From a virus (taxonomy: Duplodnaviria > Heunggongvirae > Uroviricota > Caudoviricetes), in the IMG/VR virus record IMGVR_UViG_2718217868_000004, positions 1 through 49,788 of that record: a DNA stretch of 49,788 nucleotides; one strand, given 5' to 3'. Under the pieces are notes generated by a model. The model was not told the origin of the DNA, ran no database searches, and worked only from the letters and a program-made list of their open reading frames with translations. The position numbers and the translations under genes were made by a program. Positions within the stretch are counted from its first letter, which is position 1; each line of letters begins with the position of its first letter. Positions 1-22,924 of the stretch are shown here, piece after piece.

Positions 1-558
1 TCAGCTAGCTGGAAACTTTTTATACAGAGTTGAGAGCCCTACTCCATACGTTTTTGATACGCTTTGTCGTGATTCACCGGTTGCCATCCGCTCCCCCATT
101 TCCCGCCATTGCTCATCCGTGAACTTAGGCCTGCGACCACCAACTCGCCATTTTGCCCTGGCTACGGCCAGCCCTGCTAAGGTACGTTCGCTATTAAGAT
201 CAGATTCATACTGCGCAGCAGAAAGAATATTACGGAAATTATAGCGACCACTTGCTGTTTTCAGGTCTACGCCATCTGTAATACTCCGAAAATTAACACC
301 TTTTTCGTGCAGATTTTGAAACATCAACAGCGCATGCAGAACGTTGCGGCCTATCCTGTCCAGCTTCCAGACCACCAGTTCATCCCCCTCATTTAATGCC
401 TTGAGAAGCTTTTTTAGTGCTGGCCGGTTTGCTACCGTTCCGCTCATTTTTTCTTCGAAAATTTGTTCACATCCTGCGCGTTCGAGCGCTTGCCGCTGAA
501 GATCCGTATTTTGGTCATTTGTTGACACCCTTACATAGCCAATTTGTATATTTTTCAC
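1..558 (-). CDS. Serine recombinase, DNA invertase of the Hin/Gin/Cin/Pin family
   Basis: 185-aa ORF with N-terminal GYVRVSTNDQ catalytic-serine motif and C-terminal HTH; close resemblance to e14 Pin / Mu Gin as remembered; lies next to an inverted-repeat-flanked tail fiber segment. Confidence 0.9.
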   Translation of the reverse strand: MKNIQIGYVRVSTNDQNTDLQRQALERAGCEQIFEEKMSGTVANRPALKKLLKALNEGDELVVWKLDRIGRNVLHALLMFQNLHEKGVNFRSITDGVDLKTASGRYNFRNILSAAQYESDLNSERTLAGLAVARAKWRVGGRRPKFTDEQWREMGERMATGESRQSVSKTYGVGLSTLYKKFPAS

Positions 559-583: not shown

Positions 584-1447
584 GTGAAGTTATCGGCCAG
601 GCCGGCCCGTGGCAATCTATTAAACGTCGGTTTGGGAGATACAGTTACACCCAACTTCGGCAGCCTTGAAATCGGAGCCAAAAAGCCCTCTTCAGCCAGC
701 TTCGTTGACTTCCATTTTCTTGGCTCGAATGACTATGACGCGCGCATCCTTTGCGGTGGCAATTCCAATGGAGCTAATGGCAAAGGGGACTTTACATTTT
801 ATGCAGGAAAATACGTGTTTATCGGAGACAGTTTCGAGTTCCGTAATCCAATTAACTGCCAAAACAGCATCAGCGCCGATGGCACACTAAGAGCAACCAC
901 GTCGTCAAACATATGGGCTTCCAGCGATACGCAGAATGCGCACCTGTGGTTTTACGGGGTCGGTGGGAATGCATCGCGCGGGGTAATCTATGCACCTAAG
1001 GACGGTATGATCCTACTCAGACCGGACAGCAACGATAACGGTGGCGCGAATGGCTATAATTTTTCGTTTGAATCATCTGGCCGGTTCACCTGTATTTCGG
1101 TAAACCAGACCTCTGACGAACGAGTTAAGTTTGACAAAGAGCCCGTCAGTAACGCTCTGGAGAAGATTTGTACCCTGACGGGCTACACATTCGGCATTCA
1201 GCTCACCGAATCAGCGACGGTACGAAGCGCAGGCATTATCGCCCAGGAACTGGAGCAGGTTCTGCCGGTTGCTGTGAGTTCTGACGGCACCGGCACAACA
1301 CCTGCTGGAGAAGAAATTACCGCTCTCAAAACCGTGGACTACAGTGCAATGAGTGCCCTGTATGTGGAGGCGATAAAGGAGCTTGCCGAGCGTGTCAGAA
1401 GCTTAGAAAGAGAACTGCGTGAACTTTGCAGCCCATCGGCTACCTAA
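584..1447 (+). CDS. Alternative tail fiber distal module A with C-terminal intramolecular-chaperone (peptidase S74-like) domain; probably the silent copy in this orientation
   Basis: C-terminus SDERVK...AGIIAQELEQVLP...VDYSAMSALYVEAIKEL matches the endosialidase-chaperone domain pattern; reading frame crosses the left crossover site encoding VGLG; converges tail-to-tail with module B. Confidence 0.6.
   Translation: MKLSARPARGNLLNVGLGDTVTPNFGSLEIGAKKPSSASFVDFHFLGSNDYDARILCGGNSNGANGKGDFTFYAGKYVFIGDSFEFRNPINCQNSISADGTLRATTSSNIWASSDTQNAHLWFYGVGGNASRGVIYAPKDGMILLRPDSNDNGGANGYNFSFESSGRFTCISVNQTSDERVKFDKEPVSNALEKICTLTGYTFGIQLTESATVRSAGIIAQELEQVLPVAVSSDGTGTTPAGEEITALKTVDYSAMSALYVEAIKELAERVRSLERELRELCSPSAT
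615..640. repeat. Left crossover site of invertible segment (gix/hix-like, 26 bp, core TC near 627-628)
   Basis: ATCTATTAAACG-TC-GGTTTGGGAGAT is an imperfect palindrome and matches the reverse complement of the site at 2038-2063 in its core (AAAsGTCGGTTTrGGA); 57 bp from the invertase start. Confidence 0.55.
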
Positions 1448-1998
1448 TCCACCACCCGTTTCTCTAGTCCCTTCACACGGATTGTCAGCGCTTTGATTGC
1501 CGCCAGCGCATCGAGCACAAGAGGGTTGAGGTCTAGGGTCATTTTCCCCGACTCCTCAGCCGAGTGAACATATTGCGGATCTATCTTTTCCAGTTCCTGA
1601 GCAACAACACCTCGGCGTATCGTTTTCTCTTCATCAGCAAGGTAGTAGAAGGTCTTAAAATCCATTGCCACGATGTTGGCCAGAGACACTTCTAAATTAA
1701 GTTCTCCAGTAACCTTCTTGAAATTTATGTCCGATGTACCTGCAGACTGCAGCTGCGCCCACGGCGCTGATGATTTTGGTGTTTGAGGGTCAGTGGTTGT
1801 TAGAAAACGGCTGAATACCGCACTACCGTAAGTAATCCACAGCTGCGCAATTCGCTGCCCGGTGTAGGAACTCTGAAACCCACAGCCATTCGTAGGAGCC
1901 CACAGAGTATTGCCATCAGCATCACTGATGAAGGATGAACTGGCATCTGTGGGCTTATTTTGGAGAACAGCACCAACCCCAAAAGCTCCCACCTGCAT
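1444..1998 (-). CDS. Alternative tail fiber distal module B with C-terminal intramolecular-chaperone (S74-like) domain; copy currently facing the constant fiber gene
   Basis: C-terminus RRGVVAQELEKIDPQYV...LVLDALAAIKAL resembles the S74 chaperone domain; ATG at 1998 with AGGGA RBS; frame is open upstream through the right crossover site (IKVGLG). Confidence 0.6.
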   Translation of the reverse strand: MQVGAFGVGAVLQNKPTDASSSFISDADGNTLWAPTNGCGFQSSYTGQRIAQLWITYGSAVFSRFLTTTDPQTPKSSAPWAQLQSAGTSDINFKKVTGELNLEVSLANIVAMDFKTFYYLADEEKTIRRGVVAQELEKIDPQYVHSAEESGKMTLDLNPLVLDALAAIKALTIRVKGLEKRVVD

Positions 1999-2037
1999 AA
2001 CATTCCCTGCCGCAGTTCCGACATCCTTTGTCGCACT

Positions 2038-2063
2038 ACTTCCTAAACCGACCTTTATTCACC
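2038..2063. repeat. Right crossover site of invertible segment (gix-like, core GA near 2050-2051)
   Basis: ACTTCCTAAACC-GA-CCTTTATTCACC; TTCCT..AAACCGA..TTT resembles the Mu gix site as remembered; inverted relative to the 615-640 site; contains the stop codon of the upstream fiber gene. Confidence 0.55.
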
Positions 2064-3413
2064 TTCATCGTCAGTCATGGAGAGCTCAGTAGCTCTCATT
2101 CTATGGTTGTATAAAGAATCGGCAGGCATTTCGACACGCACGGACACAAACTGGTCACGGGGGATATCGACCGGGTCGCCATCATTGATACCCTGTAGCT
2201 CGTTCCTGGCGAACGCCGGTGCTTCCGGGTGTGTACGGTGATAGGTTTTCACCAGCACAGAACCGTCCGCATTAACTTCGTAATCCAGCCAGATGAGCGG
2301 CTGCTTGTTGCGGTCGGTGGGGATATCAAAACCGCCATCGATGCCGCCCCAGGCTGCGTCTGAGTTCATTCCCTCACATCCTTCAACCAGATATTCACCG
2401 ACGGCAAGACGGGTTACAGTGCAGCCTTCTGATTCATCGTTAGTCTGGTATGTACCATCCGAAAACATCTTTAACACCGGCGATGCGGCTTTTAGAGTGC
2501 CATCGCTGGCACGAGTTGTATTGATGGTGGTATAGACTGCAAACCAATCGGAATAATTGCCAGCTGCATATTTAGTTCGCCCTGCGATTCCCTTTTGAGT
2601 GATTACGCATTGGGCATTGAACAACCCAGCCCCAACATTCAATGCCACTCCATAATAGTTAATTAGCGATTCCCCTATGCTTTTCGAAGGTGAGCCTTCC
2701 CCCGCACCATTTCCGTCATCAAACTGGCGGCCATAGATGCCAGAACCACCGTAGTTGGGAGAGGCATCAGGCATATCAGTGGTGCTATTCCAGTTTTTGT
2801 TATTGGTTGTCCCAGTAAAAACTTGCTCAACTATTTGCAGGCTATTCCTTGCATCTTTAGCTGAGTTGGCACCCGTCCCACCTAAGCTGACAGGTACCAC
2901 ACCTTTGCTATCTACCAAACCGAGGTTTGTGCGAGCGTCTGCTGCAGTCGTTGCCCCGGTCCCGCCGTCTGCAACAGCAAGCGCACCGTTGCTCCCTTTC
3001 TGCGCAAGTTTACCGATGCCTGGGATGGTTACGGCGGTGCCGTTGATGGTAACTGTGATGCTTTGGTTTGCTGAGGTGGTGGCGAACGTCTCCCACGCGC
3101 CAATATTCTCGTCATATTCTTTGATGAGCTGCGACATTGCCTGGGCCAGTCCGTCGACGGAGATAATGTCTGACACCAGAATGGCGTATTTCTGGCCGCT
3201 CAGCGCCGGAGAAGCTGCAGGCGTAATCGTCATTGACGTGGCGCTGTTCACGGATGAAATCTGGAACAGCTGCACCGGGTTAGACATCACGATAATTGTC
3301 TGCCCAGCGCGAACCTGGCTGGCCGGTGCCGTCCAGTTTGTGCCCGTCCCGGTGGCGGTATTTCCATTAATGGCGATGGTGCCGGTGTTATAAAGCATAT
3401 TTTCTCCAGGCAA
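2055..3413 (-). CDS. Side tail fiber protein (Stf-like, constant part); probable true start at ATG 3398
   Basis: Gly/Thr-rich N-terminus and repeated GGTGA..DARxNLGL phage tail fiber repeats; GGAG RBS before the ATG at 3398; stop codon sits inside the right crossover site. Confidence 0.8.
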   Translation of the reverse strand: MPGENMLYNTGTIAINGNTATGTGTNWTAPASQVRAGQTIIVMSNPVQLFQISSVNSATSMTITPAASPALSGQKYAILVSDIISVDGLAQAMSQLIKEYDENIGAWETFATTSANQSITVTINGTAVTIPGIGKLAQKGSNGALAVADGGTGATTAADARTNLGLVDSKGVVPVSLGGTGANSAKDARNSLQIVEQVFTGTTNNKNWNSTTDMPDASPNYGGSGIYGRQFDDGNGAGEGSPSKSIGESLINYYGVALNVGAGLFNAQCVITQKGIAGRTKYAAGNYSDWFAVYTTINTTRASDGTLKAASPVLKMFSDGTYQTNDESEGCTVTRLAVGEYLVEGCEGMNSDAAWGGIDGGFDIPTDRNKQPLIWLDYEVNADGSVLVKTYHRTHPEAPAFARNELQGINDGDPVDIPRDQFVSVRVEMPADSLYNHRMRATELSMTDDEGE

Positions 3414-3437
3414 TAAAAAAACCCCGCCGGAGCGAGG
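3414..3437 (-). terminator. Intrinsic terminator-like hairpin plus U-run on the minus strand, immediately upstream of the tail fiber RBS
   Basis: Minus-strand CCTCGC-tccg-GCGGGG stem followed by TTTTTTT; member of the GCCCCGC/GCGAGGC hairpin family seen four times in the window. Confidence 0.5.
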
Positions 3438-3458
3438 TTTATGTTTAAGCGTAGTGGG

Positions 3459-3692
3459 TTATTTGCAGGTTGTTTCGGTAAATGTATTCGCACTTACCCA
3501 GCGCCAGCTGAAAGGATATCCAGCCCGGTACTGCGTCTGGTTGTTTTGTTTACGCACACCGTAAATCTGAACCGTAGTTTCCTGACCGCCAACGATTGCA
3601 GTGCCGCTGCAAACTGGTTCCTGTTTCTCAATTACGCCAGCGCATCCTGTAAGCATGACAGCGCCTGCCATGCAGATAATCAGTTTTCTCAT
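3459..3692 (-). CDS. Small outer-membrane lipoprotein, possible Llp/Cor-type superinfection-exclusion factor
   Basis: 77-aa ORF with signal peptide and lipobox LTGC; mature part about 61 aa with two further Cys; located between the J-proximal genes and the side tail fiber; the function is inference from size and position. Confidence 0.6.
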   Translation of the reverse strand: MRKLIICMAGAVMLTGCAGVIEKQEPVCSGTAIVGGQETTVQIYGVRKQNNQTQYRAGYPFSWRWVSANTFTETTCK

Positions 3693-4781: not shown

Positions 4782-7700
4782 TCAGAACACCCCCGTTAAT
4801 CGGCCAACCTGCACTCTCAGAACGTTGTTGCCATCCTTGACGCTGATTGTCTGGTTGGTCTGCTTCATGGCTCCCTCCCCAGCTGTCGAACCGTAGTTCT
4901 CAAACGTCCCGGACTTATCCAGTTTCCAGCCAACAGAGCCGGCAACATAATTGTTCGACTGGATGTAATTGCCAATTTTTGCATTGCTTATGGTCCCGTC
5001 GCCAATGACTGTATCCCTGATAATGGCCTGGCCATTCTGGATAACGAACGGCAGTGTTACAGTCCCGCCGACCATAGTAGTCACGGCGAAACGGTCTGCC
5101 AGGAAGATTACCTGTGACTGCATGCCGGAGGGTGTATTTTGAACCCCAATACCCATCCCGGCAGCGTAATACTGCCCGTTACTGGACACCCCCACCTTGA
5201 TGTTATACATCGCGCTGAGGTTACCGTTTACATCTGCTATAGCCTGTGCGTTGACGTTTATCGCTGCACTGTTTTCGCCTGATTTAACAGTCAGAGTGTT
5301 GATTTTTGTTGCCGAAGCCTGGGTGAAATCAGCAAGAGTTTCTGTCAGGTCCGTTGAGTTAGAGATATTGCCACCAGCTTCTGCATCCAGTGTGACCAGC
5401 GCGCGTGCGACCGCCTGGCTGGTATCGGCAATCGTAGTATCCACTCTGTCTATACTGGCACTGTTCCCGGCGTTCGTGGCGGTCTGCGAGCGACGGCTTA
5501 CCACCTGCGCCAGCCCATTCTGAATAATCGCGATTGCCGAGTTCTTCACTCCTCCCGTCATGCCGTCCATCGACACAGAAATCTCGTCGATCTTCACTTC
5601 GGCCTGAGCCAGCCCGTCAGCGTTCTCCAGGATGTCTTTCGCCTGCTGCTCGAGTTCGTCGGCATGGTTTTTAATTTCGTCAGCCATGCCAGCAATTTTT
5701 TCGTTGCTGTCCACCGCGTTCTCGATCAGATCTTTGAACGTATCGGAGCCTTTCATGTCCTCCAGGATTGCATCGGTGATATCGGAAACATCGATGCTGG
5801 CCTGCCCGCGCACCCAGTCTGTCCAGTCGCTCTGATTCCCGATGCGGTCAACCAGCCGTGCCCGGTACCAGAATTCCTGCCCTGCCTTCAGCCCCATCTG
5901 CTGATAGAGTTTCTGAGGATACGGCACCGACGCCAAAAGCATTGGATTTGCCCCATCGACTGAAGCGCTGTATTGCAGTTCCGTGCTCAGGGTGTCGGCG
6001 GTATCTGCGGGGAAACCCCATGTAATGTTGATCCCAAATACAACATCCTCTGTTGCTGTTAGTCCGACAGGTTTGGGCACTTCACCGGTGCGGCCGGTAA
6101 GATGGGTCAACGCAGACGTGGCCCAAAGGCTGGACGCTCCCCCAGAGTTAATCGCACGGACGCGCACAAGGTAATCGCCCTCGAAAATGCCAGGCACTTC
6201 GATATTTCGTAACCCGGTTTCAGGCACGTTTACCCATTCGTTATTTCCGCGCTTCCACTGTGCCCGGTACGCTATTACGTCCGACTGCAGTTTGCCGTCT
6301 TTATCAATTGGCGCATCCCACGAGGCGGTTAGCGTGGCCACGCGTTGCCCCTGGCGAACCGCATCATAGCTCGATACCACGATGTTGGTCGGCTGGTTAA
6401 CTAGCCCGGTCGGAATCAGGCTTATCGGAGGAGTATCGAGGCGAGCGTTGTTATCAACGGCGTCGTATTTCGACGCGTTATACTCCGCACCGGTAATGGT
6501 GAAGGTGTTTTCCTCATCATCAAATTTTAGGTTCGTTACCCGGAAATACTGCAGGCGCAGCTGACCAGCATCAATGACGAATACGGCATTAGGTAATGGC
6601 GCCGCCGTGAACGGCGTGGACAGGATCAGCTGCGTGCCATTTACGGCCTGTATCACCCGGCTTTCAACGGTACCGCCCTGGGTGCGAATCATCAGCGTAT
6701 CGCCCGCCACCGCACTGGTGCCCCGGTCAATGGTCACGGCCTTAAGACCAGCGTTATACCCGGTGATACGCCCGCCGTAAACGCGCCCTGACAGGCGTTC
6801 ATCTGCAAACGCAAATACGGTGCCCGGCACGAATACAAAGCCATCAAGTCCAGTCTGAAGCGTGATAATGCGGTCAAGGGAGTTGGAATACACCGCCCAC
6901 CCGCCACGCCGCTGCGCCTCGCTCTCACGCGTACAACCGATCGCAGTGATTTGTGTCTGCTTAAACTTGAACTGCCTTACCAGTTCCGGAAACATCACTG
7001 CCGTGGTGCGGTCCTGGTAGTGGTTATCCGGATCGCTGAAGTTAATCAGCGCGCTGGAGAATCGGTTTTTCTCACTGCCACTCGAGTACACCGGCTTACC
7101 CACCACTGATGCGCGAGTGAGGATCTGCAACTTCGTAGTGTCCGCCGGCATGTCAGAGACAACATTGAACATGTTGTTGCCCCAGAAAGTCATTCCGTTG
7201 AAGCCCGCGGCAATATCTTTAATCACCTGCCAGGCATCAGCCTGGGACTGGATGTAAACGTCAAACATGAAGCGTGGCTCGGTACCGCTTCCGCCTTTCC
7301 CGTCGGGTACCTTCTGGTCGCAGCGCTGGGCGATGCGATAGAGCTCCCACTTATCGAGCATTTCTGGCGTCACGCGGCGCCCAAGGCCGAAGCGCGGCTC
7401 AGTCAGAACATCGAACCAAATCCACGCCGGGTTATTCGTCCAGCCCCATTTAAACGTCCCGTCCCATGTTCCGCTATAAGTCCGCGCTATTGGATCATAG
7501 TTCGAAGGGATTCGGATGATGCGCCCCTTCGGCATGCAGGAAATCTTAGGGATGTTGTTGAATGACTTTGCGTTAAAGGACACGTACAGCAGCGCTGTGT
7601 GTGGATATCGCAGGCGAGCATCGATCACTTCAGTAATCGCTTGCACCTGCGTTTTGTTCTGCAGCATCTGGCTGGTGCTGTCATCGGTGTCACGCACCAC

Positions 7701-8261
7701 TCGAATTTGCCAGCCAGTGCTGGCTTTGGGAAGATTAATACGGTGGGTTAGTTCATAGAGCGAGCTGAGCTTCTCTGTGACGGTTTTCGTCATGACTGTC
7801 GAGTAAGCGCCACCGTCCACCGCCAGATCAATATGGTACTGAACCGTAGTGCCGACAATATCCCCATCGTTTTCCTGCTGCTGTAACCCAGGGATGCCAA
7901 TACGAACCAGCACCGCGTCAATCTGGGTGTTACTCAGTGCGCGGGTCCATGGTGTGGCCTTTGTCAGCGATACCCCAACCGTAGTTTCATTCTCGACTGC
8001 AGGGAATCCCGGTATTGGTGTCTGGGTCTGTGTGCCAGGCCGGAAATCCCATGACACATTTTCAAAATTCATCGTTCCGTCGGGGTTTCCCAACGGCGTA
8101 CCGTCCAGGAATATCCGGGTCGCATCCAGGCCACCAGCAAACTCCCCCTCCCCGAGCGCCAGCAGCATGCGGCAGCGCGCCATTGACTGAGCCGAATCGG
8201 GCTGTTCTACAGGTGTGTGCTGCTTCTGGCTGCCACCCTTTGCACCAGTGATCGCTTCCAT
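4782..8261 (-). CDS. Central tail fiber / tip attachment protein J (host specificity protein)
   Basis: 1159 aa; N-terminus and overall organisation resemble lambda J as remembered; follows tail assembly genes I, K, L, M. Confidence 0.9.
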   Translation of the reverse strand: MEAITGAKGGSQKQHTPVEQPDSAQSMARCRMLLALGEGEFAGGLDATRIFLDGTPLGNPDGTMNFENVSWDFRPGTQTQTPIPGFPAVENETTVGVSLTKATPWTRALSNTQIDAVLVRIGIPGLQQQENDGDIVGTTVQYHIDLAVDGGAYSTVMTKTVTEKLSSLYELTHRINLPKASTGWQIRVVRDTDDSTSQMLQNKTQVQAITEVIDARLRYPHTALLYVSFNAKSFNNIPKISCMPKGRIIRIPSNYDPIARTYSGTWDGTFKWGWTNNPAWIWFDVLTEPRFGLGRRVTPEMLDKWELYRIAQRCDQKVPDGKGGSGTEPRFMFDVYIQSQADAWQVIKDIAAGFNGMTFWGNNMFNVVSDMPADTTKLQILTRASVVGKPVYSSGSEKNRFSSALINFSDPDNHYQDRTTAVMFPELVRQFKFKQTQITAIGCTRESEAQRRGGWAVYSNSLDRIITLQTGLDGFVFVPGTVFAFADERLSGRVYGGRITGYNAGLKAVTIDRGTSAVAGDTLMIRTQGGTVESRVIQAVNGTQLILSTPFTAAPLPNAVFVIDAGQLRLQYFRVTNLKFDDEENTFTITGAEYNASKYDAVDNNARLDTPPISLIPTGLVNQPTNIVVSSYDAVRQGQRVATLTASWDAPIDKDGKLQSDVIAYRAQWKRGNNEWVNVPETGLRNIEVPGIFEGDYLVRVRAINSGGASSLWATSALTHLTGRTGEVPKPVGLTATEDVVFGINITWGFPADTADTLSTELQYSASVDGANPMLLASVPYPQKLYQQMGLKAGQEFWYRARLVDRIGNQSDWTDWVRGQASIDVSDITDAILEDMKGSDTFKDLIENAVDSNEKIAGMADEIKNHADELEQQAKDILENADGLAQAEVKIDEISVSMDGMTGGVKNSAIAIIQNGLAQVVSRRSQTATNAGNSASIDRVDTTIADTSQAVARALVTLDAEAGGNISNSTDLTETLADFTQASATKINTLTVKSGENSAAINVNAQAIADVNGNLSAMYNIKVGVSSNGQYYAAGMGIGVQNTPSGMQSQVIFLADRFAVTTMVGGTVTLPFVIQNGQAIIRDTVIGDGTISNAKIGNYIQSNNYVAGSVGWKLDKSGTFENYGSTAGEGAMKQTNQTISVKDGNNVLRVQVGRLTGVF

Positions 8262-11989: not shown

Positions 11990-14900
11990 TTACTTTTTCA
12001 CAAAGCGGCCACCAATCGCTCCATCATCTCTGATTGCTCTGACGATGCCTTCTTGGACATACTGCTTCACACGATCAGCCAGCGCGCGAGCAGCCGCGTC
12101 ACCACCACCGCTGGTATTTGCAGTCGCGTTACCTTTGTTATCGACATAAATATCAACGTTGATTTGATGTCCGGAACCACCAGCGCCTTGGGCACGCACA
12201 CCCAACCGCCCTGCTGAATCTTTAGCTAACGGCATAATAGCTTCCGGCCCTGCCTCTCCAAAGACGCCGCCCTTGGCAAACTTAGAGGCCCCCTGGAAGG
12301 AGAAGTATTGCGGGGAATCATAGACACCGTTCACATACTGGTGAAGGCCCGCTGATTCGTAGACACCACCCTTAGCATTCCTGACTGGCCCGACGAAATC
12401 TGGACTGCCGATACCGCCACCTTGAGGATTTGAAGAGCCACTTATCCACCCCATTGCCGCCTGCACCGCATAGGCCACCATGAGGCGGTTCGTCACATCA
12501 AGGATCATCTTGAGCATGGATTTGCCAAACTCTTTAACCGACGCAGTGCCGGTTGTCATGAGTTCGGTTAGCATGTCGGACAATCCTGTCAAAGTGGAGC
12601 TGGCAACGTTCTTAACGGCGTCGTATGTATTGGTAGCAGCGTCGAGATATTCATTCCAGCCACTTACCGCACCTGCTTTCCAGTCGCCCCGTAATTTGTC
12701 CTCTTCGGCATAATATTTCCTGAGAGCCGCCAGTTCTTTTTTATAACCGGCATCGTCAAGCTTACCGCCACCGTTGAGCCAGCCCTGGCGAAGCTGCGCC
12801 TCTTCCATCATGCGCTGCGTTTGCCGACTGCTGAGACCTGCACTATCACGCAATGCATCGGTTTTTTCCGACATCTGCGTGACGTATTTATTCGCCTGCT
12901 GCGCCAGGCCGTTAATCTTCTGCTGCGCCTCTACTTCCTTGTTCTTCTGATCCACCACCTTGGCGGCGTTCAGAATGGCCTCACGGCTCGACAGTAGAGA
13001 TTTCTCCTGGGCGGTCAGCGCGCGTGTTTTGGCAGCCTCATCCAATTCAGCAAAGCGAGATTGCTGTTTGCTGAATTCGGTATATCTGACCTGAGTCTCC
13101 CCAGTCTTGCGCAACGTTTCGAGTGTTTCAGTTAACGTTCTGGCCTGGGCGCGGTAGTTCTCAAGAGTGCGATCGCCAGCATCCAGCGTGGCTTTTGCCT
13201 CTTTGGTCTTTTTGGCTGAGTCTTGTGCAAGCTTCGAGACTGCGTCTCTTGATTCTCGACTTGTTCCTCCATCACCTTTTACGTTAGACCCTCGCGCTTC
13301 AGCCTCATAGTTTGCCTGTGCGTTAGGCGCAGTGACGCGCTTCCAAAGCTCGTTATAGCGTTTTTTGTTCGCCTCAATCTCTTTGTCCGCCTCCGCTCCA
13401 GCCTTTTTCATTGCCTCAACGTCCATGCCGAGGAAATTAGCCAGCGCACCGCCACCCGGGATTTTGTCTGCCCAGCCAGCGATGGTGCTGGTGAACTTGG
13501 CGTCCAGAGAGGTGATATTGAGGAACAAGTCTTTGATCGAGGATTTAACCAGTTCGAAAATATCAATGATCTGGTTTCCCCATGCGCGCACGGTAATACC
13601 TATATCGCCAAAGGTGTCAGAAGCGCTCTTTTTAAGGTTTTCCCACGTTTGACCGATATTATCGGTCGCTTTGTTGGTCTCCTCTGCGCGCTTTGCCATG
13701 ACGCCTGCAAACAGCTCAATAGCTTCGGTAACAGCCGCCTGCTCACCCTTCTGCTTACGTAGCTGGATAATGTGCTTGATCATGGCTTCATCAACGAAAC
13801 CATATTGTTCATTGAGGCTGGCAAGCCCTTTAACCGGATCGCTGACAATCTTTCCGAAGTCGCTTATTGCCGCTTTGGTATCATTTCCGGCCTTACCCAT
13901 GAGGGTGATGGTCGTTGCGACCTGCTTCATCTGGCTTGCGGTATATTTGCCAGTATCATTCAACGTAACCAGCGTATCGACGGTGGAGCTAATCGATGTA
14001 TTCGTCTTGCCAGCCACTTCCTCAGCGGCCTGGTTGAGCTGCTGCATTGAGGAGAAGCCAGCCCCACCCATCATGATGACAGAGCGTGCCACCTGCTCAA
14101 ATTGCTCCGAGGAGTTATACGCTGCGGCAGCCAGCAGGCCGATCGTGCCAATCAGCCCACCAAGTGCGATTGTGGTAGGGTTAATCATCCCAGCCATGCT
14201 GCGGATGTATTCGCCGACGCCGGACAGCGCCCCCTGAACCGAGCCGAACTGGTCTTTAATCTGCCCGCCCTGTTGCAGCAGAATCAGGAACGGCGACTGA
14301 CCGCCAGCCAGCTGCGTGGCGATATCGGTGAATTGCGCCGGAAGCGTGCGCATTGCTGCGCTGTACTGACCAACGGAGATTCCAGCGCGCCGGGCAGCAG
14401 CTTCCTGCCGGGATAGCGCCTCTGGTAGTACGTCAGCGACACCAGAGAGGCGCTCACGCGTCTGGTTAAGGATTGTGTTGAAGTGCTCGAACTGAGCACC
14501 GTTAATGCGCCCAGCTTCGAAATGTGCCACCAGCTGTGCGTGCTGTTCATCCAACGAATTGAACGCGCGGATAGTCGGGTCGATGGATCCAAGAAGGTTC
14601 TTTAACGCTGCGGACTGCTTCTCTGCCGCCTGGGTAGCGGCTAATTCGGCCTGAGCACGCGCCGCGGCTTCTCCGGTGTCGGTCAGCTTGAGGCGGGTGT
14701 CATCCAGGATTTTGTTGTATGCCTGAAAGGTATCGGTATCCAGGAAACCTTTGGCCTGGAATTTCCGCAGCGATTCTTGCTGCTCATCCAGGCGGTTTAA
14801 GGCCTTGGTAACCGGGTCGATATTCTCCAGCAGCCCTTTGAGCGCGTTCTGCTGCTCCTTGAGTCCTTCGCTGCCTTGCTTCGCAGATTCAGCGCCAGCG

Positions 14901-15037
14901 CGAAACACGCTATTCAGATCATCTGCTTTATCTACAGCACCGGCCGCCGCCTGGCCGAGTTTATCCAGTTCGTTGCTGGCTGTTTTCAGGTCAGAAACAT
15001 CGGCCCGCAAAGTAATCGAGGCGATCTGGTCTGTCAT
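11990..15037 (-). CDS. Tail tape measure protein
   Basis: 1015 aa, Ala/Gln/Lys-rich coiled-coil-like sequence with Gly-rich C-terminus; follows the G/GT chaperones. Confidence 0.9.
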   Translation of the reverse strand: MTDQIASITLRADVSDLKTASNELDKLGQAAAGAVDKADDLNSVFRAGAESAKQGSEGLKEQQNALKGLLENIDPVTKALNRLDEQQESLRKFQAKGFLDTDTFQAYNKILDDTRLKLTDTGEAAARAQAELAATQAAEKQSAALKNLLGSIDPTIRAFNSLDEQHAQLVAHFEAGRINGAQFEHFNTILNQTRERLSGVADVLPEALSRQEAAARRAGISVGQYSAAMRTLPAQFTDIATQLAGGQSPFLILLQQGGQIKDQFGSVQGALSGVGEYIRSMAGMINPTTIALGGLIGTIGLLAAAAYNSSEQFEQVARSVIMMGGAGFSSMQQLNQAAEEVAGKTNTSISSTVDTLVTLNDTGKYTASQMKQVATTITLMGKAGNDTKAAISDFGKIVSDPVKGLASLNEQYGFVDEAMIKHIIQLRKQKGEQAAVTEAIELFAGVMAKRAEETNKATDNIGQTWENLKKSASDTFGDIGITVRAWGNQIIDIFELVKSSIKDLFLNITSLDAKFTSTIAGWADKIPGGGALANFLGMDVEAMKKAGAEADKEIEANKKRYNELWKRVTAPNAQANYEAEARGSNVKGDGGTSRESRDAVSKLAQDSAKKTKEAKATLDAGDRTLENYRAQARTLTETLETLRKTGETQVRYTEFSKQQSRFAELDEAAKTRALTAQEKSLLSSREAILNAAKVVDQKNKEVEAQQKINGLAQQANKYVTQMSEKTDALRDSAGLSSRQTQRMMEEAQLRQGWLNGGGKLDDAGYKKELAALRKYYAEEDKLRGDWKAGAVSGWNEYLDAATNTYDAVKNVASSTLTGLSDMLTELMTTGTASVKEFGKSMLKMILDVTNRLMVAYAVQAAMGWISGSSNPQGGGIGSPDFVGPVRNAKGGVYESAGLHQYVNGVYDSPQYFSFQGASKFAKGGVFGEAGPEAIMPLAKDSAGRLGVRAQGAGGSGHQINVDIYVDNKGNATANTSGGGDAAARALADRVKQYVQEGIVRAIRDDGAIGGRFVKK

Positions 15038-22459: not shown

Positions 22460-22924
22460 TTAGAGAATTTGCCAGTCATCAGCCAAGACGTCGGTTTGGC
22501 TTGGTGCCCAAGGCACGCGAGCGCCATTTGGGTATGGCATAGCACCATTGCCCGGCACCGGATAAATTAAACGAATGTACGGCAGGTCCACAGATGGCGA
22601 CTGCTGGACCAGCTCAAGCCACAGGCCCTTGCCGTTCCAGCCTGCGCGGGTGACACGCTTGCCTGATTTCAGGGCTTCGACAGCCAGTCCGAAGCTAAGC
22701 CCCGCCACTGGTCGGTAGGCTTTGTCGAACACATCTTTCGGACTCCAGCTCACATACCCGTTGAAGCGATCGGTATTTGGCTTTCCGCCATCCAGATACT
22801 CGACGAGATAACCTTCATCACTTCCGTTTTCGTCACTTGGTAACTCCCAACCACGAAAGTCGTTATATGCCAGACGGGTCATCGGGTAAGCATTGATGAG
22901 CTTCACGCCAATATGTTGAGTCAT
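22460..22924 (-). CDS. DUF2829-like phage protein
   Basis: C-terminal half (ALKSGKRVTRAGWNGKG...VPWAPSQTDVLADDWQIL) matches the remembered DUF2829 pattern. Confidence 0.45.
   Translation of the reverse strand: MTQHIGVKLINAYPMTRLAYNDFRGWELPSDENGSDEGYLVEYLDGGKPNTDRFNGYVSWSPKDVFDKAYRPVAGLSFGLAVEALKSGKRVTRAGWNGKGLWLELVQQSPSVDLPYIRLIYPVPGNGAMPYPNGARVPWAPSQTDVLADDWQIL

Follow-up and report, generated by a model that had tools for sequence, protein, structure and literature searches.

The tail-fibre locus described here belongs to a lambdoid, phi80-like prophage of E. coli H6. Very probably it is a multiple-inversion switch with three sites and three modules that acts on the side tail fibre, i.e. 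a 'shufflon' in the loose sense of the term. A single constant N-terminal part (Sc) is joined to variable module A, B or C depending on the genome. With three crossover sites, four isomers are possible; each of them is represented in public assemblies, in which modules and flanks are nearly identical. The window, i.e. the whole stretch of 49,788 nucleotides that was analysed, contains the following features of the locus:

1-558, minus strand: phi80 PinL-type serine DNA invertase (Pfam Resolvase, 7.5e-39; HTH_7, 1.5e-9)
615-640, plus strand: invertase-side crossover site s3, core 622-635, central TC 627-628, exact pattern match
629-1447, plus strand: variable module A, Pfam PF13884, C-terminal S74 chaperone, Ser/Lys motif SDERVK at 1112-1129
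1444-2049, minus strand: variable module B, Pfam PF13884, C-terminal S74 chaperone, motif SDINFK at 1717-1734
2038-2063, minus strand: crossover site s2, core 2043-2056, central TC 2051-2050 (minus strand), pattern match
2055-2921, minus strand: variable module C, Phage_tail_C_2 (Pfam PF25670, 7e-59), with its own stop at 2055-2057
2910-2935, minus strand: crossover site s1, core 2915-2928, central TC 2923-2922 (minus strand), exact pattern match
2922-3398, minus strand: Sc, constant N-terminal part (~159 aa) of the side tail fibre, ATG at 3398 with GGAGAA upstream
3419-3440, minus strand: terminator-like intrinsic hairpin, after cor and directly upstream of the fibre gene

The sites recombined by invertases of the Din family are 26 bp long and consist of a 2-bp core flanked by two imperfectly inverted half-sites; partner sites have identical cores and lie in inverted orientation. 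A preliminary description of this DNA had recognised one such pair, at 615-640 and 2038-2063, and these are indeed inverted 26-mers with 14-nt cores (17/26 positions identical between s3 and s2), but the third site, with its core at 2915-2928, had been overlooked. Scanning the window with the pattern AAASSTCGGTTTRG gives three exact matches, that at 2915-2928 on the minus strand being the third, and with one mismatch allowed the count rises to four (chance expectation, 0.10). The additional 14-mer, at 22486-22499, carries one mismatch and lies within a DUF2829 gene; it was taken as a chance match. Sites s1 and s3 are identical at 19/26 positions, and s1 lies in an inverted repeat (I4) that is 90% complementary across 20 nt. 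The core AAA-SS-TC-GGTTT is common to all three sites and Mu gix, with the central TC and the flanks AAAsS and GGTTT present in each of the three.

The codon phase is likewise identical at 3/3 sites, which code for (N/K)-(L/V)-G-L, s1 reading T-N-L-G-L-V; the earlier observation that the frames of modules A and B both read through the site as V-G-L-G was confirmed. As the codon phase is the same at the sites and strands would be exchanged at the central TC, Sc can be joined in frame to any adjacent module. The left half of s3 is formed by the outer flank and its right half by the first codons of module A, while s2 consists of the end of module C (final codons and TAA stop) on the left and the start of module B on the right, a stop-in-half-site layout also present in L002-L004. 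Site s1 is the true constant/variable junction, and homology to invertase-less, non-invertible phi80-like and HK-type phages breaks off at 2907-2917.

The position of s1 changes the reading of the fibre gene. ORF 2055-3413, previously regarded as the constant fibre gene, is in fact Sc plus module C, and the constant part ends at s1. Its TAA at 2055-2057 does fall within a crossover site and in a phase other than that of module B, as had been noted, but the offset of one nucleotide has no significance, for this TAA is module C's own stop and module B is never read from that ORF. No frameshift, decay or indel is required, and the apparent anomaly of a frameshifted or decaying switch disappears once the overlooked third site is taken into account. 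Thus, the expressed tip in the window isomer is module C, as an Sc-C fibre, and A and B are silent. The fusions are open to their stops, yielding 431 aa for Sc-A, 360 aa for Sc-B, and 447 aa for Sc-C. In public data the predicted 431-aa Sc-A fusion is present full length at 100% and 99% identity, as are 360-aa Sc-B fusions at 97-99%.

In comparisons with the PDB, residues 2-97 of Sc match N-terminal regions of phage depolymerases, modules A and B the chaperone regions of gp37 from phage S16 (6f45) and of the L-shaped fibre from T5 (8hqz), respectively, and module C a 'putative tail fiber' (7z47_D, 231 bits). Modules A and B correspond to the two convergent modules recognised before (ORFs 584-1447, plus strand, and 1444-2055, minus strand; Peptidase_S74 with E values of 9e-11 and 3e-9), and their stop codons overlap. 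In gene-caller annotation A starts at GTG 584 and B at ATG 1998, each as an ORF of its own; these two ORFs, labelled "tail fiber domain-containing protein", are silent cassettes rather than genes. The stretch 622-2928 is filled end to end by the three module ORFs and holds no Tfa-like ORF. Since the modules neither include nor require a separate tail-fibre-assembly gene, they are packed end to end, with stops that overlap or lie inside half-sites.

The isomers were assigned to four states, and the half-site pairs of three of them illustrate the exchange of partners:

State 0: window, L004
State 1: L007-L009, L011-L013
State 2: L060, L061
State 3: L001/L053, L050, L052, L055-L057
Half-site pairs in the window: outer/A, Cend/B, Sc/C
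Half-site pairs in L001: outer/C, Cend/A, Sc/B
Half-site pairs in L061: outer/B, Cend/A, Sc/C

The halves of s3 are joined to other modules in L001, L060, and L061, and module C is inverted beside the invertase in L001 and L007-L013. Pairwise comparisons resolve the single moves. L007 has segment 622-2928 (2307 bp) in the orientation opposite to that in L004, at 99.7% identity, and between L009 and L050 a 1425-bp segment is inverted at 100%, each flank having one mismatch. L061 differs from the window by inversion of the 1437-bp A/B segment, the invertase gene being 100% identical at the nucleotide level and the fibre-side flank showing 1 mismatch in 6358 nt. Hence the proposal that the segment of about 1.4 kb inverts is correct, as it is flipped both in L061 relative to the window and in L009 relative to L050. 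Judged from such sequence identity, the inversions are recent. Exchange points between isomers are always located within the 7-nt TCGGTTT, and the rearrangements observed are inversions between oppositely oriented sites plus one class of site-to-site deletion. In L012, L013, and L060 module B is swapped for an 80%-identical variant. The state-2 genomes surfaced through an exact-protein look-up of Sc-C, and a search of complete E. coli genomes for the outer/B junction of this state gave no contiguous match. Strains H5 and H6 share state 0. Contigs that end at the Sc site were down-weighted as a sign of within-culture heterogeneity, because the presence of two prophages with the same Sc in some genomes would also break the assembly.

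Based on these findings we propose that the Gin/Pin-family invertase (1-558) would recombine the gix-like sites s3 (plus), s2 (minus), and s1 (minus). Inversion of the whole 2307 bp between s1 and s3 would convert the Sc-C state of the window into Sc-A, and the 1.4-kb A/B flip would exchange the outward-facing module between A and B; with the segment distal, as in the window, this flip would be silent, and with the segment proximal it would turn Sc-A into Sc-B. Enumeration of the moves yields four isomers and a ratio of 2:1:1; with Sc-C made by two of the four, C:A:B = 2:1:1 would be expected at equilibrium. Catalysis of these inversions by the window's own invertase, with dependence on Fis and an enhancer, is what we would expect. 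The S74 chaperones of A and B would presumably cleave themselves off at the Ser/Lys motif after trimerisation, and the three tips may recognise different receptors.

Invertases of the Din family comprise ~185-195 aa, with an N-terminal catalytic domain that harbours the nucleophile Ser9 and a C-terminal HTH, and the 5' part of their gene contains a recombinational enhancer bound by Fis. The invertase of the window (RefSeq annotation: 1-549) had rightly been assigned to the Gin/Pin type: the ORF at 1-558 on the minus strand contains Resolvase and HTH_7 domains, 101/181 residues (56%) are identical to Mu Gin, and the match to Gin in the PDB (3uj3) is full-length with 209 bits. NCBIfam, searched with the modules and the invertase, returned only general recombinase families and nothing specific. 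The motif GYVRVSTNDQ is conserved and the catalytic Ser aligns with S9 of Gin, whose role has been described (PMC3575834). We aligned the enzyme with phi80 PinL (83% identical), mEpX1, and canonical Gin-like relatives. The PinL type has the first ~65 residues and gix-like sites in common with the canonical enzymes, whereas the E-helix/dimer interface is fully rewritten: the Gin motif GRFFFHVMGALAEMERELI, which includes H106 and M114, is absent from the window invertase, and the window enzyme, phi80 PinL, and mEpX1 instead contain GRYNFRNILSAAQYESDLNS, in which R and Y replace H106 and M114. Of the 121 sequences aligned, 120 have this motif and the remaining one differs by a single substitution. 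By its sequence, the window invertase thus belongs to a distinct sub-clade of the Din family and is not a canonical member. It also carries G134W; this position is Gly in 114/121 close homologues and W in 7/121, the W134 allele being spread over several 90%-identity clusters.

Two 15-mers resembling the Fis consensus, at about 454-468 and 502-516, 48 bp apart and both lacking the C at +7, are a weak, consensus-level match in a region under coding constraint; their centres are ~119 and ~167 bp from the core of s3, and their positions correspond to those of a pair with similar spacing in Mu gin. The 5' third of the invertase gene together with s3 shows ~86% DNA conservation in loci that have no blastn match elsewhere in the gene. 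H106 of Gin is one position at which mutation leads to Fis independence. Another such mutation, M114V, maps to the E-helix/dimer-interface region (PMC3575834). One may speculate that PinL-type invertases, comprising the enzymes of the window, phi80 and mEpX1 together with over 100 cluster representatives from enterobacteria, form a functionally distinct clade, possibly Fis/enhancer-independent or otherwise regulated, that serves compact shufflons whose modules require no separate assembly chaperone, although we regard this idea as rather doubtful.

The reading put forward before, a two-site Mu-like switch whose constant gene ends in an out-of-frame stop, so that the modules are separate proteins, the switch is decaying or an indel is located at 2040-2065, is very improbable. 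The TAA inside the site, in a phase other than that of module B, and the treatment of A and B as free-standing ORFs by gene callers would fit it, but it leaves no place for the third, in-phase site at 2915-2928, at which homology to the non-invertible relatives ends. Production of separate proteins is at odds with the Sc-A and Sc-B fusion ORFs that occur naturally, full length, in other isolates; a decaying switch does not agree with three intact modules in phase with the sites; and the s2 sequence at 2038-2063 is identical in independent assemblies, which argues against a sequencing indel. Even less credible is homologous recombination of the RecA or Red type at short repeats, i.e. prophage mosaicism instead of site-specific inversion. 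Lambdoid tail-fibre regions are highly mosaic, and module B is replaced by the 80%-identical variant in three loci, which would fit this reading; however, the exchange points are confined to TCGGTTT of the gix-like site, only inversions between opposed sites and the one site-to-site deletion class are seen, a homologue of Gin is adjacent in every case, and rearrangement in the phage FRφ is abolished by Δgin (PMC13418256).

A more serious, yet still unlikely, alternative is that the locus is a genuine three-site shufflon that is frozen in this lysogen, the PinL-type allele being inactive and the isomers being old or made in trans by other Gin/Pin-type invertases. The minority status of G134W, the divergence of the E-helix from canonical Gin/Hin, the one state shared by H5 and H6, and the fact that phi80 retains pinL yet lost sites and modules are all in line with such a scenario, and a second, canonical invertase in VREC0761 could have worked in trans. 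L061, however, has the same W134 invertase and an inverted A/B segment with almost no other change, and the W allele recurs in several 90%-identity clusters; the nearly invariant E-helix motif likewise suggests a functional protein.

The arrangement resembles several known systems without being identical to any of them. The G segment of Mu with Gin, like C/Cin of P1 and P/Pin of e14, employs a homologous serine invertase to join a constant N-terminal part to alternative C-terminal parts by inversion, and Mu gix, TTATCCAAAACC-TC-GGTTTACAGGAA, has the same core, AAACC-TC-GGTTT, and the same placement of the N-L-G-L codons as the window. The likening of the locus to a Mu G-segment-like host-range switch is therefore appropriate as to the invertase-driven kind but not as to the layout: Mu, P1, and e14 have two sites and modules that are each accompanied by a U/Tfa assembly gene, whereas the window has three sites, three modules, and no such gene, its modules being single ORFs with a built-in S74 chaperone or Phage_tail_C_2. 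The phage of the window also differs in being a lambdoid siphovirus that switches its side tail fibre. Plasmid p15B reportedly harbours the Din-family invertase Min and six sites in the tail-fibre coding sequence, by which C-terminal segments are shuffled (Iida 1990, cited in PMC6906374). By this description it shares with the window the presence of more than two crossover sites within the fibre coding sequence, but it has many more isomers and is part of a P1-like fibre operon that includes assembly genes. R64-type shufflons (Rci/pilV) also diversify the C-terminus of an adhesin by multiple inversions, although with the tyrosine recombinase Rci and sfx sites instead of a serine enzyme.

The layout of three sites, four isomers, and three C-termini is already known from two systems, the P2-like prophage of EPEC E2348/69 and the Enterobacter phage FRφ. 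The former has three partly homologous inverted repeats and four coexisting, PCR-verified variants with three alternative tail-fibre C-termini, and from each variant a single inversion leads to either of two others (Goldberg et al. 2014, PMC4272514). Compared by layout, its switch logic is identical to that of the window, although the phage is a P2-like myovirus. FRφ, a prophage of Enterobacter sp. BIDMC93 (BioProject PRJNA1256936), is a lambdoid, FhuA-dependent, temperate phage with gin downstream of the fibre gene; its three tail-fibre C-terminal isoforms are present at ~50/25/25, and switching among them requires gin (Nat Microbiol 2026, PMC13418256). Likened by this published description, its proportions equal the ratio predicted by the four-isomer layout of the window. 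A link to FRφ via Enterobacter homologues of Sc-A was not obtained, the loci retrieved being mostly two-site and next to umuDC, not fliC-tldR. The locus thus adds a clean natural three-site, four-isomer tail-fibre switch in a phi80-like prophage of E. coli, every isomer of which is found in public assemblies. An assembly of such a locus shows a single, arbitrary isomer or is interrupted at a site. The self-chaperoning modules might be of use as compact, swappable receptor-binding cassettes in phage engineering.

A further known system is the pinL region of phi80, which belongs to the same prophage family, uses the same attachment site, and has the gene order of the window (J, two small ORFs, cor, fibre, invertase, att). 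Unlike that of the window, its switch is degenerate, i.e. it lacks pattern-matching sites, the second module is a pseudogene fragment and dinL is inserted. A promoter scan gave a site count no higher than in shuffled sequence, and the counterpart of the hairpin at 3419-3440 is annotated as a terminator in phi80.

The window, identical over its 49,788 bases to E. coli H6 NZ_CP010170.1:2805924-2855711, holds a whole phi80-like lambdoid prophage that adjoins yciI/tonB, with the invertase stop codon at one end and the integrase at the other. The fibre switch and its neighbours are arranged as follows (Sc, constant N-terminal part of the side tail fibre; A, B and C, alternative variable tips):

1-558, minus strand: invertase, Resolvase and HTH_7 domains
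584-1447, plus strand: ORF of module A, Peptidase_S74 domain
1444-1998/2055, minus strand: ORF of module B, Peptidase_S74 domain
2055-3398/3413, minus strand: ORF of Sc plus module C, ending with TAA 2055-2057
between the fibre ORF and cor: terminator
3459-3692, minus strand: cor
between cor and J: two small ORFs
4782-8261, minus strand: J

The preliminary description had taken this locus for a Mu-like switch with only two crossover sites, yet the pattern AAASSTCGGTTTRG has three perfect matches in the window, i.e. site A (622-635, +), site B (2043-2056, -) and a third site (2915-2928, -), and a scan allowing one mismatch yields four matches versus 0.10 expected by chance. The 26-mers described around sites A and B are indeed true inverted copies (17/26 nt identical, 14-nt core), but site A matches the third site even better (19/26), and the repeat finder places a better inverted partner of 622-641 at 2909-2928 with 90% complementarity over 20 nt. 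All three sites share the central TC and the same codon phase (AAC-GTC-GGT-TTG at site A, AAG-GTC-GGT-TTA at site B and AAC-CTC-GGT-TTG at the Sc-to-C junction), and modules A and B both read V-G-L-G through the crossover site, as had been noted. The gix site of Mu, TTATCCAAAACC-TC-GGTTTACAGGAA, uses this phase too and codes for N-L-G-L in protein S. A fourth site-like 14-mer with one mismatch, AGACGTCGGTTTGG at 22486-22499 (+), lies within a DUF2829 gene ~20 kb from the switch and is probably a chance match.

The third site is located inside the ORF 2055-3413, which had been regarded as constant. Sc, however, comprises only 2922-3398, since homology to many invertase-less phage relatives (megablast versus phages; HK140, mEp213, mEp043, HK106, mEpX2 and HK75 among them) stops at 2907-2917, and 2055-2921 is variable module C, with a Phage_tail_C_2 domain and homology to the tail fibre 7z47_D in its C-terminal half. 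TAA 2055-2057 does lie inside a site and in a phase other than that of module B, but instead of an anomalous out-of-frame stop it is module C's own stop codon, which contributes to the left half of the next site, a layout also found in the related loci L002-L004. The earlier observation was accurate as far as it went and is partly confirmed: the kind of system stands, the supposed anomaly does not.

Joined at the central TC to A, B or C, Sc yields complete ORFs of 431, 360 or 447 aa, respectively. Over its first ~97 residues Sc resembles the N-terminal parts of phage depolymerases, regions that probably serve for attachment to the virion. The Pfam search retrieves a Peptidase_S74 domain in both ORFs between the 26-mers, as described; the structure aligned to module A is the intramolecular-chaperone region of phage S16 gp37 (6f45), and for module B it is the counterpart in the T5 L-shaped fibre (8hqz); the Ser-x4-Lys motif is kept in both (SDERVK 1112-1129 and SDINFK 1717-1734). 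By analogy, the chaperone domains of A and B are probably removed autocatalytically after trimerisation. The stop codons of A and B overlap at 1444-1447, and the three modules fully occupy 622-2928, where no tail-fibre-assembly gene is found. Full-length entries 100% and 99% identical to the predicted Sc-A protein exist in the protein collection, together with hundreds of relatives at 81-96% in E. coli, Lelliottia and Enterobacter, and Sc-B fusions are also found. GTG 584 opens a 13-codon in-frame leader (584-621) into whichever module adjoins the invertase, so that gene callers list the silent cassette (A in the window, C in L001) as a protein, a putative product.

Enumeration shows that three sites, one of them oriented opposite to the other two, generate four isomers, each one inversion away from two others, with two of the four expressing Sc-C; this layout would predict isoforms at 2:1:1. 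All four isomers exist in public assemblies, with modules about 99-100% identical.

Isomers, read from Sc to the invertase, and half-site junctions (left flanks: outer, invertase side; Cend, end of module C; Sc)
State 0: Sc-C, B>, <A; window, L004
State 1: Sc-A, <B, <C; L007-L009, L011-L013
State 2: Sc-C, A>, <B; L060, L061
State 3: Sc-B, <A, <C; L001/L053, L050, L052, L055-L057
Window junctions: outer/A, Cend/B, Sc/C
L001 junctions: outer/C, Cend/A, Sc/B
L061 junctions: outer/B, Cend/A, Sc/C

As half-sites are swapped exactly as expected among the window, L001 and L061, strand exchange is placed inside TCGGTTT. The proposed inversion of the A/B segment is borne out by L061, in which 1437 bp are flipped relative to the window, with 100% nucleotide identity in the invertase region and 1 mismatch in 6358 nt of the fibre-side flank; this flip remains silent, the segment being distal to Sc. 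Likewise, exactly 2307 bp are inverted between L004 and L007 (99.7% identical), and the 1425-bp A/B segment is inverted between L009 and L050 at 100% identity, with one mismatch per flank. From these sequence comparisons, the rearrangements are recent relative to point divergence.

Five loci (L010, L049, L051, L054, L058) lack the equivalent of 2050-2921, i.e. module C, and these two-module derivatives occur in both orientations, Sc-A and Sc-B, which fits rare deletion between the sites on either side of C, which are in direct orientation in states 1 and 3. E. coli VREC0761 (NZ_LR536430.1) carries two related prophages, at yciI/tonB and aspS/yecD (L001 and L007, ~142-151 kb and 852-862 kb), with the same three fibre modules in different states (Sc-B and Sc-A) and with different invertase types. 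Among 21 draft-genome contigs encoding an Sc relative, eight end 0-420 nt after the crossover site (L022, L025-L029, L033, L039), perhaps because the sequenced culture contained a mixture of isomers or because prophages were duplicated.

The invertase is of the Gin/Pin type, as proposed: besides its Resolvase and HTH_7 domains, ORF 1-558 shows 56% identity to Mu Gin and a match of 209 bits to Gin in the PDB (3uj3). The invertases serving this module family are of two kinds, one with the canonical Gin-like E-helix (L004, L017) and a PinL type (window, phi80 PinL, mEpX1) in which GRYNFRNILSAAQYESDLNS replaces it; both kinds have the first ~65 residues in common. The genes are mosaic (window 1-558 versus L004:2131-2685 and L017:10191-10748), the 5' third (~65 codons) and the outer site sharing ~86% DNA identity and the other two thirds giving no blastn match. 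In Gin/Hin-type systems this conserved 5' block is the location of the enhancer. As GRYNFRNILSAAQYESDLNS is present in 120 of 121 aligned sequences, with one substitution in the remaining one, the PinL type is a real, constrained clade. The window's invertase (annotated as 182 aa) carries G134W at the end of helix E, directly before the DNA-binding arm (context K-G-R-V-G-G-R); 114/121 close homologues have Gly, and Trp is confined to the window and six other cluster representatives (7/121). Given L061, the W134 allele is compatible with inversion having happened, although another invertase may have acted in trans.

The classical many-site relative is p15B Min. A switch of the same logic, in which three inverted repeats give four variants and three C-termini, has been described and PCR-verified in a P2-like prophage of EPEC E2348/69 (PMC4272514), and the lambdoid, FhuA-dependent Enterobacter phage FRφ shows long-read isoforms at ~50/25/25, the ratio predicted for the window, with Δgin locking the locus (PMC13418256). 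The window's switch is therefore of a known type, and its peculiarities, self-chaperoning, Tfa-less modules and an invertase of the PinL-type clade, are modest. Relatives of Sc in Enterobacter, Citrobacter, Buttiauxella and others have one site without invertase, two sites or three. In phi80 (L005, JX871397.1, 21.3-24.5 kb) pinL is kept, but all that is left of a second module is a pseudogene fragment; dinL is inserted between fibre gene and invertase, and the fibre locus, in which no crossover sites are recognisable, represents a decayed form of the switch intact in the window. Elsewhere in the prophage, the tape-measure gene (11990-15037, -) is split in RefSeq into a 597-aa CDS and a partial pseudogene, an annotation quirk rather than a defect, as its 1015-aa ORF is unbroken.
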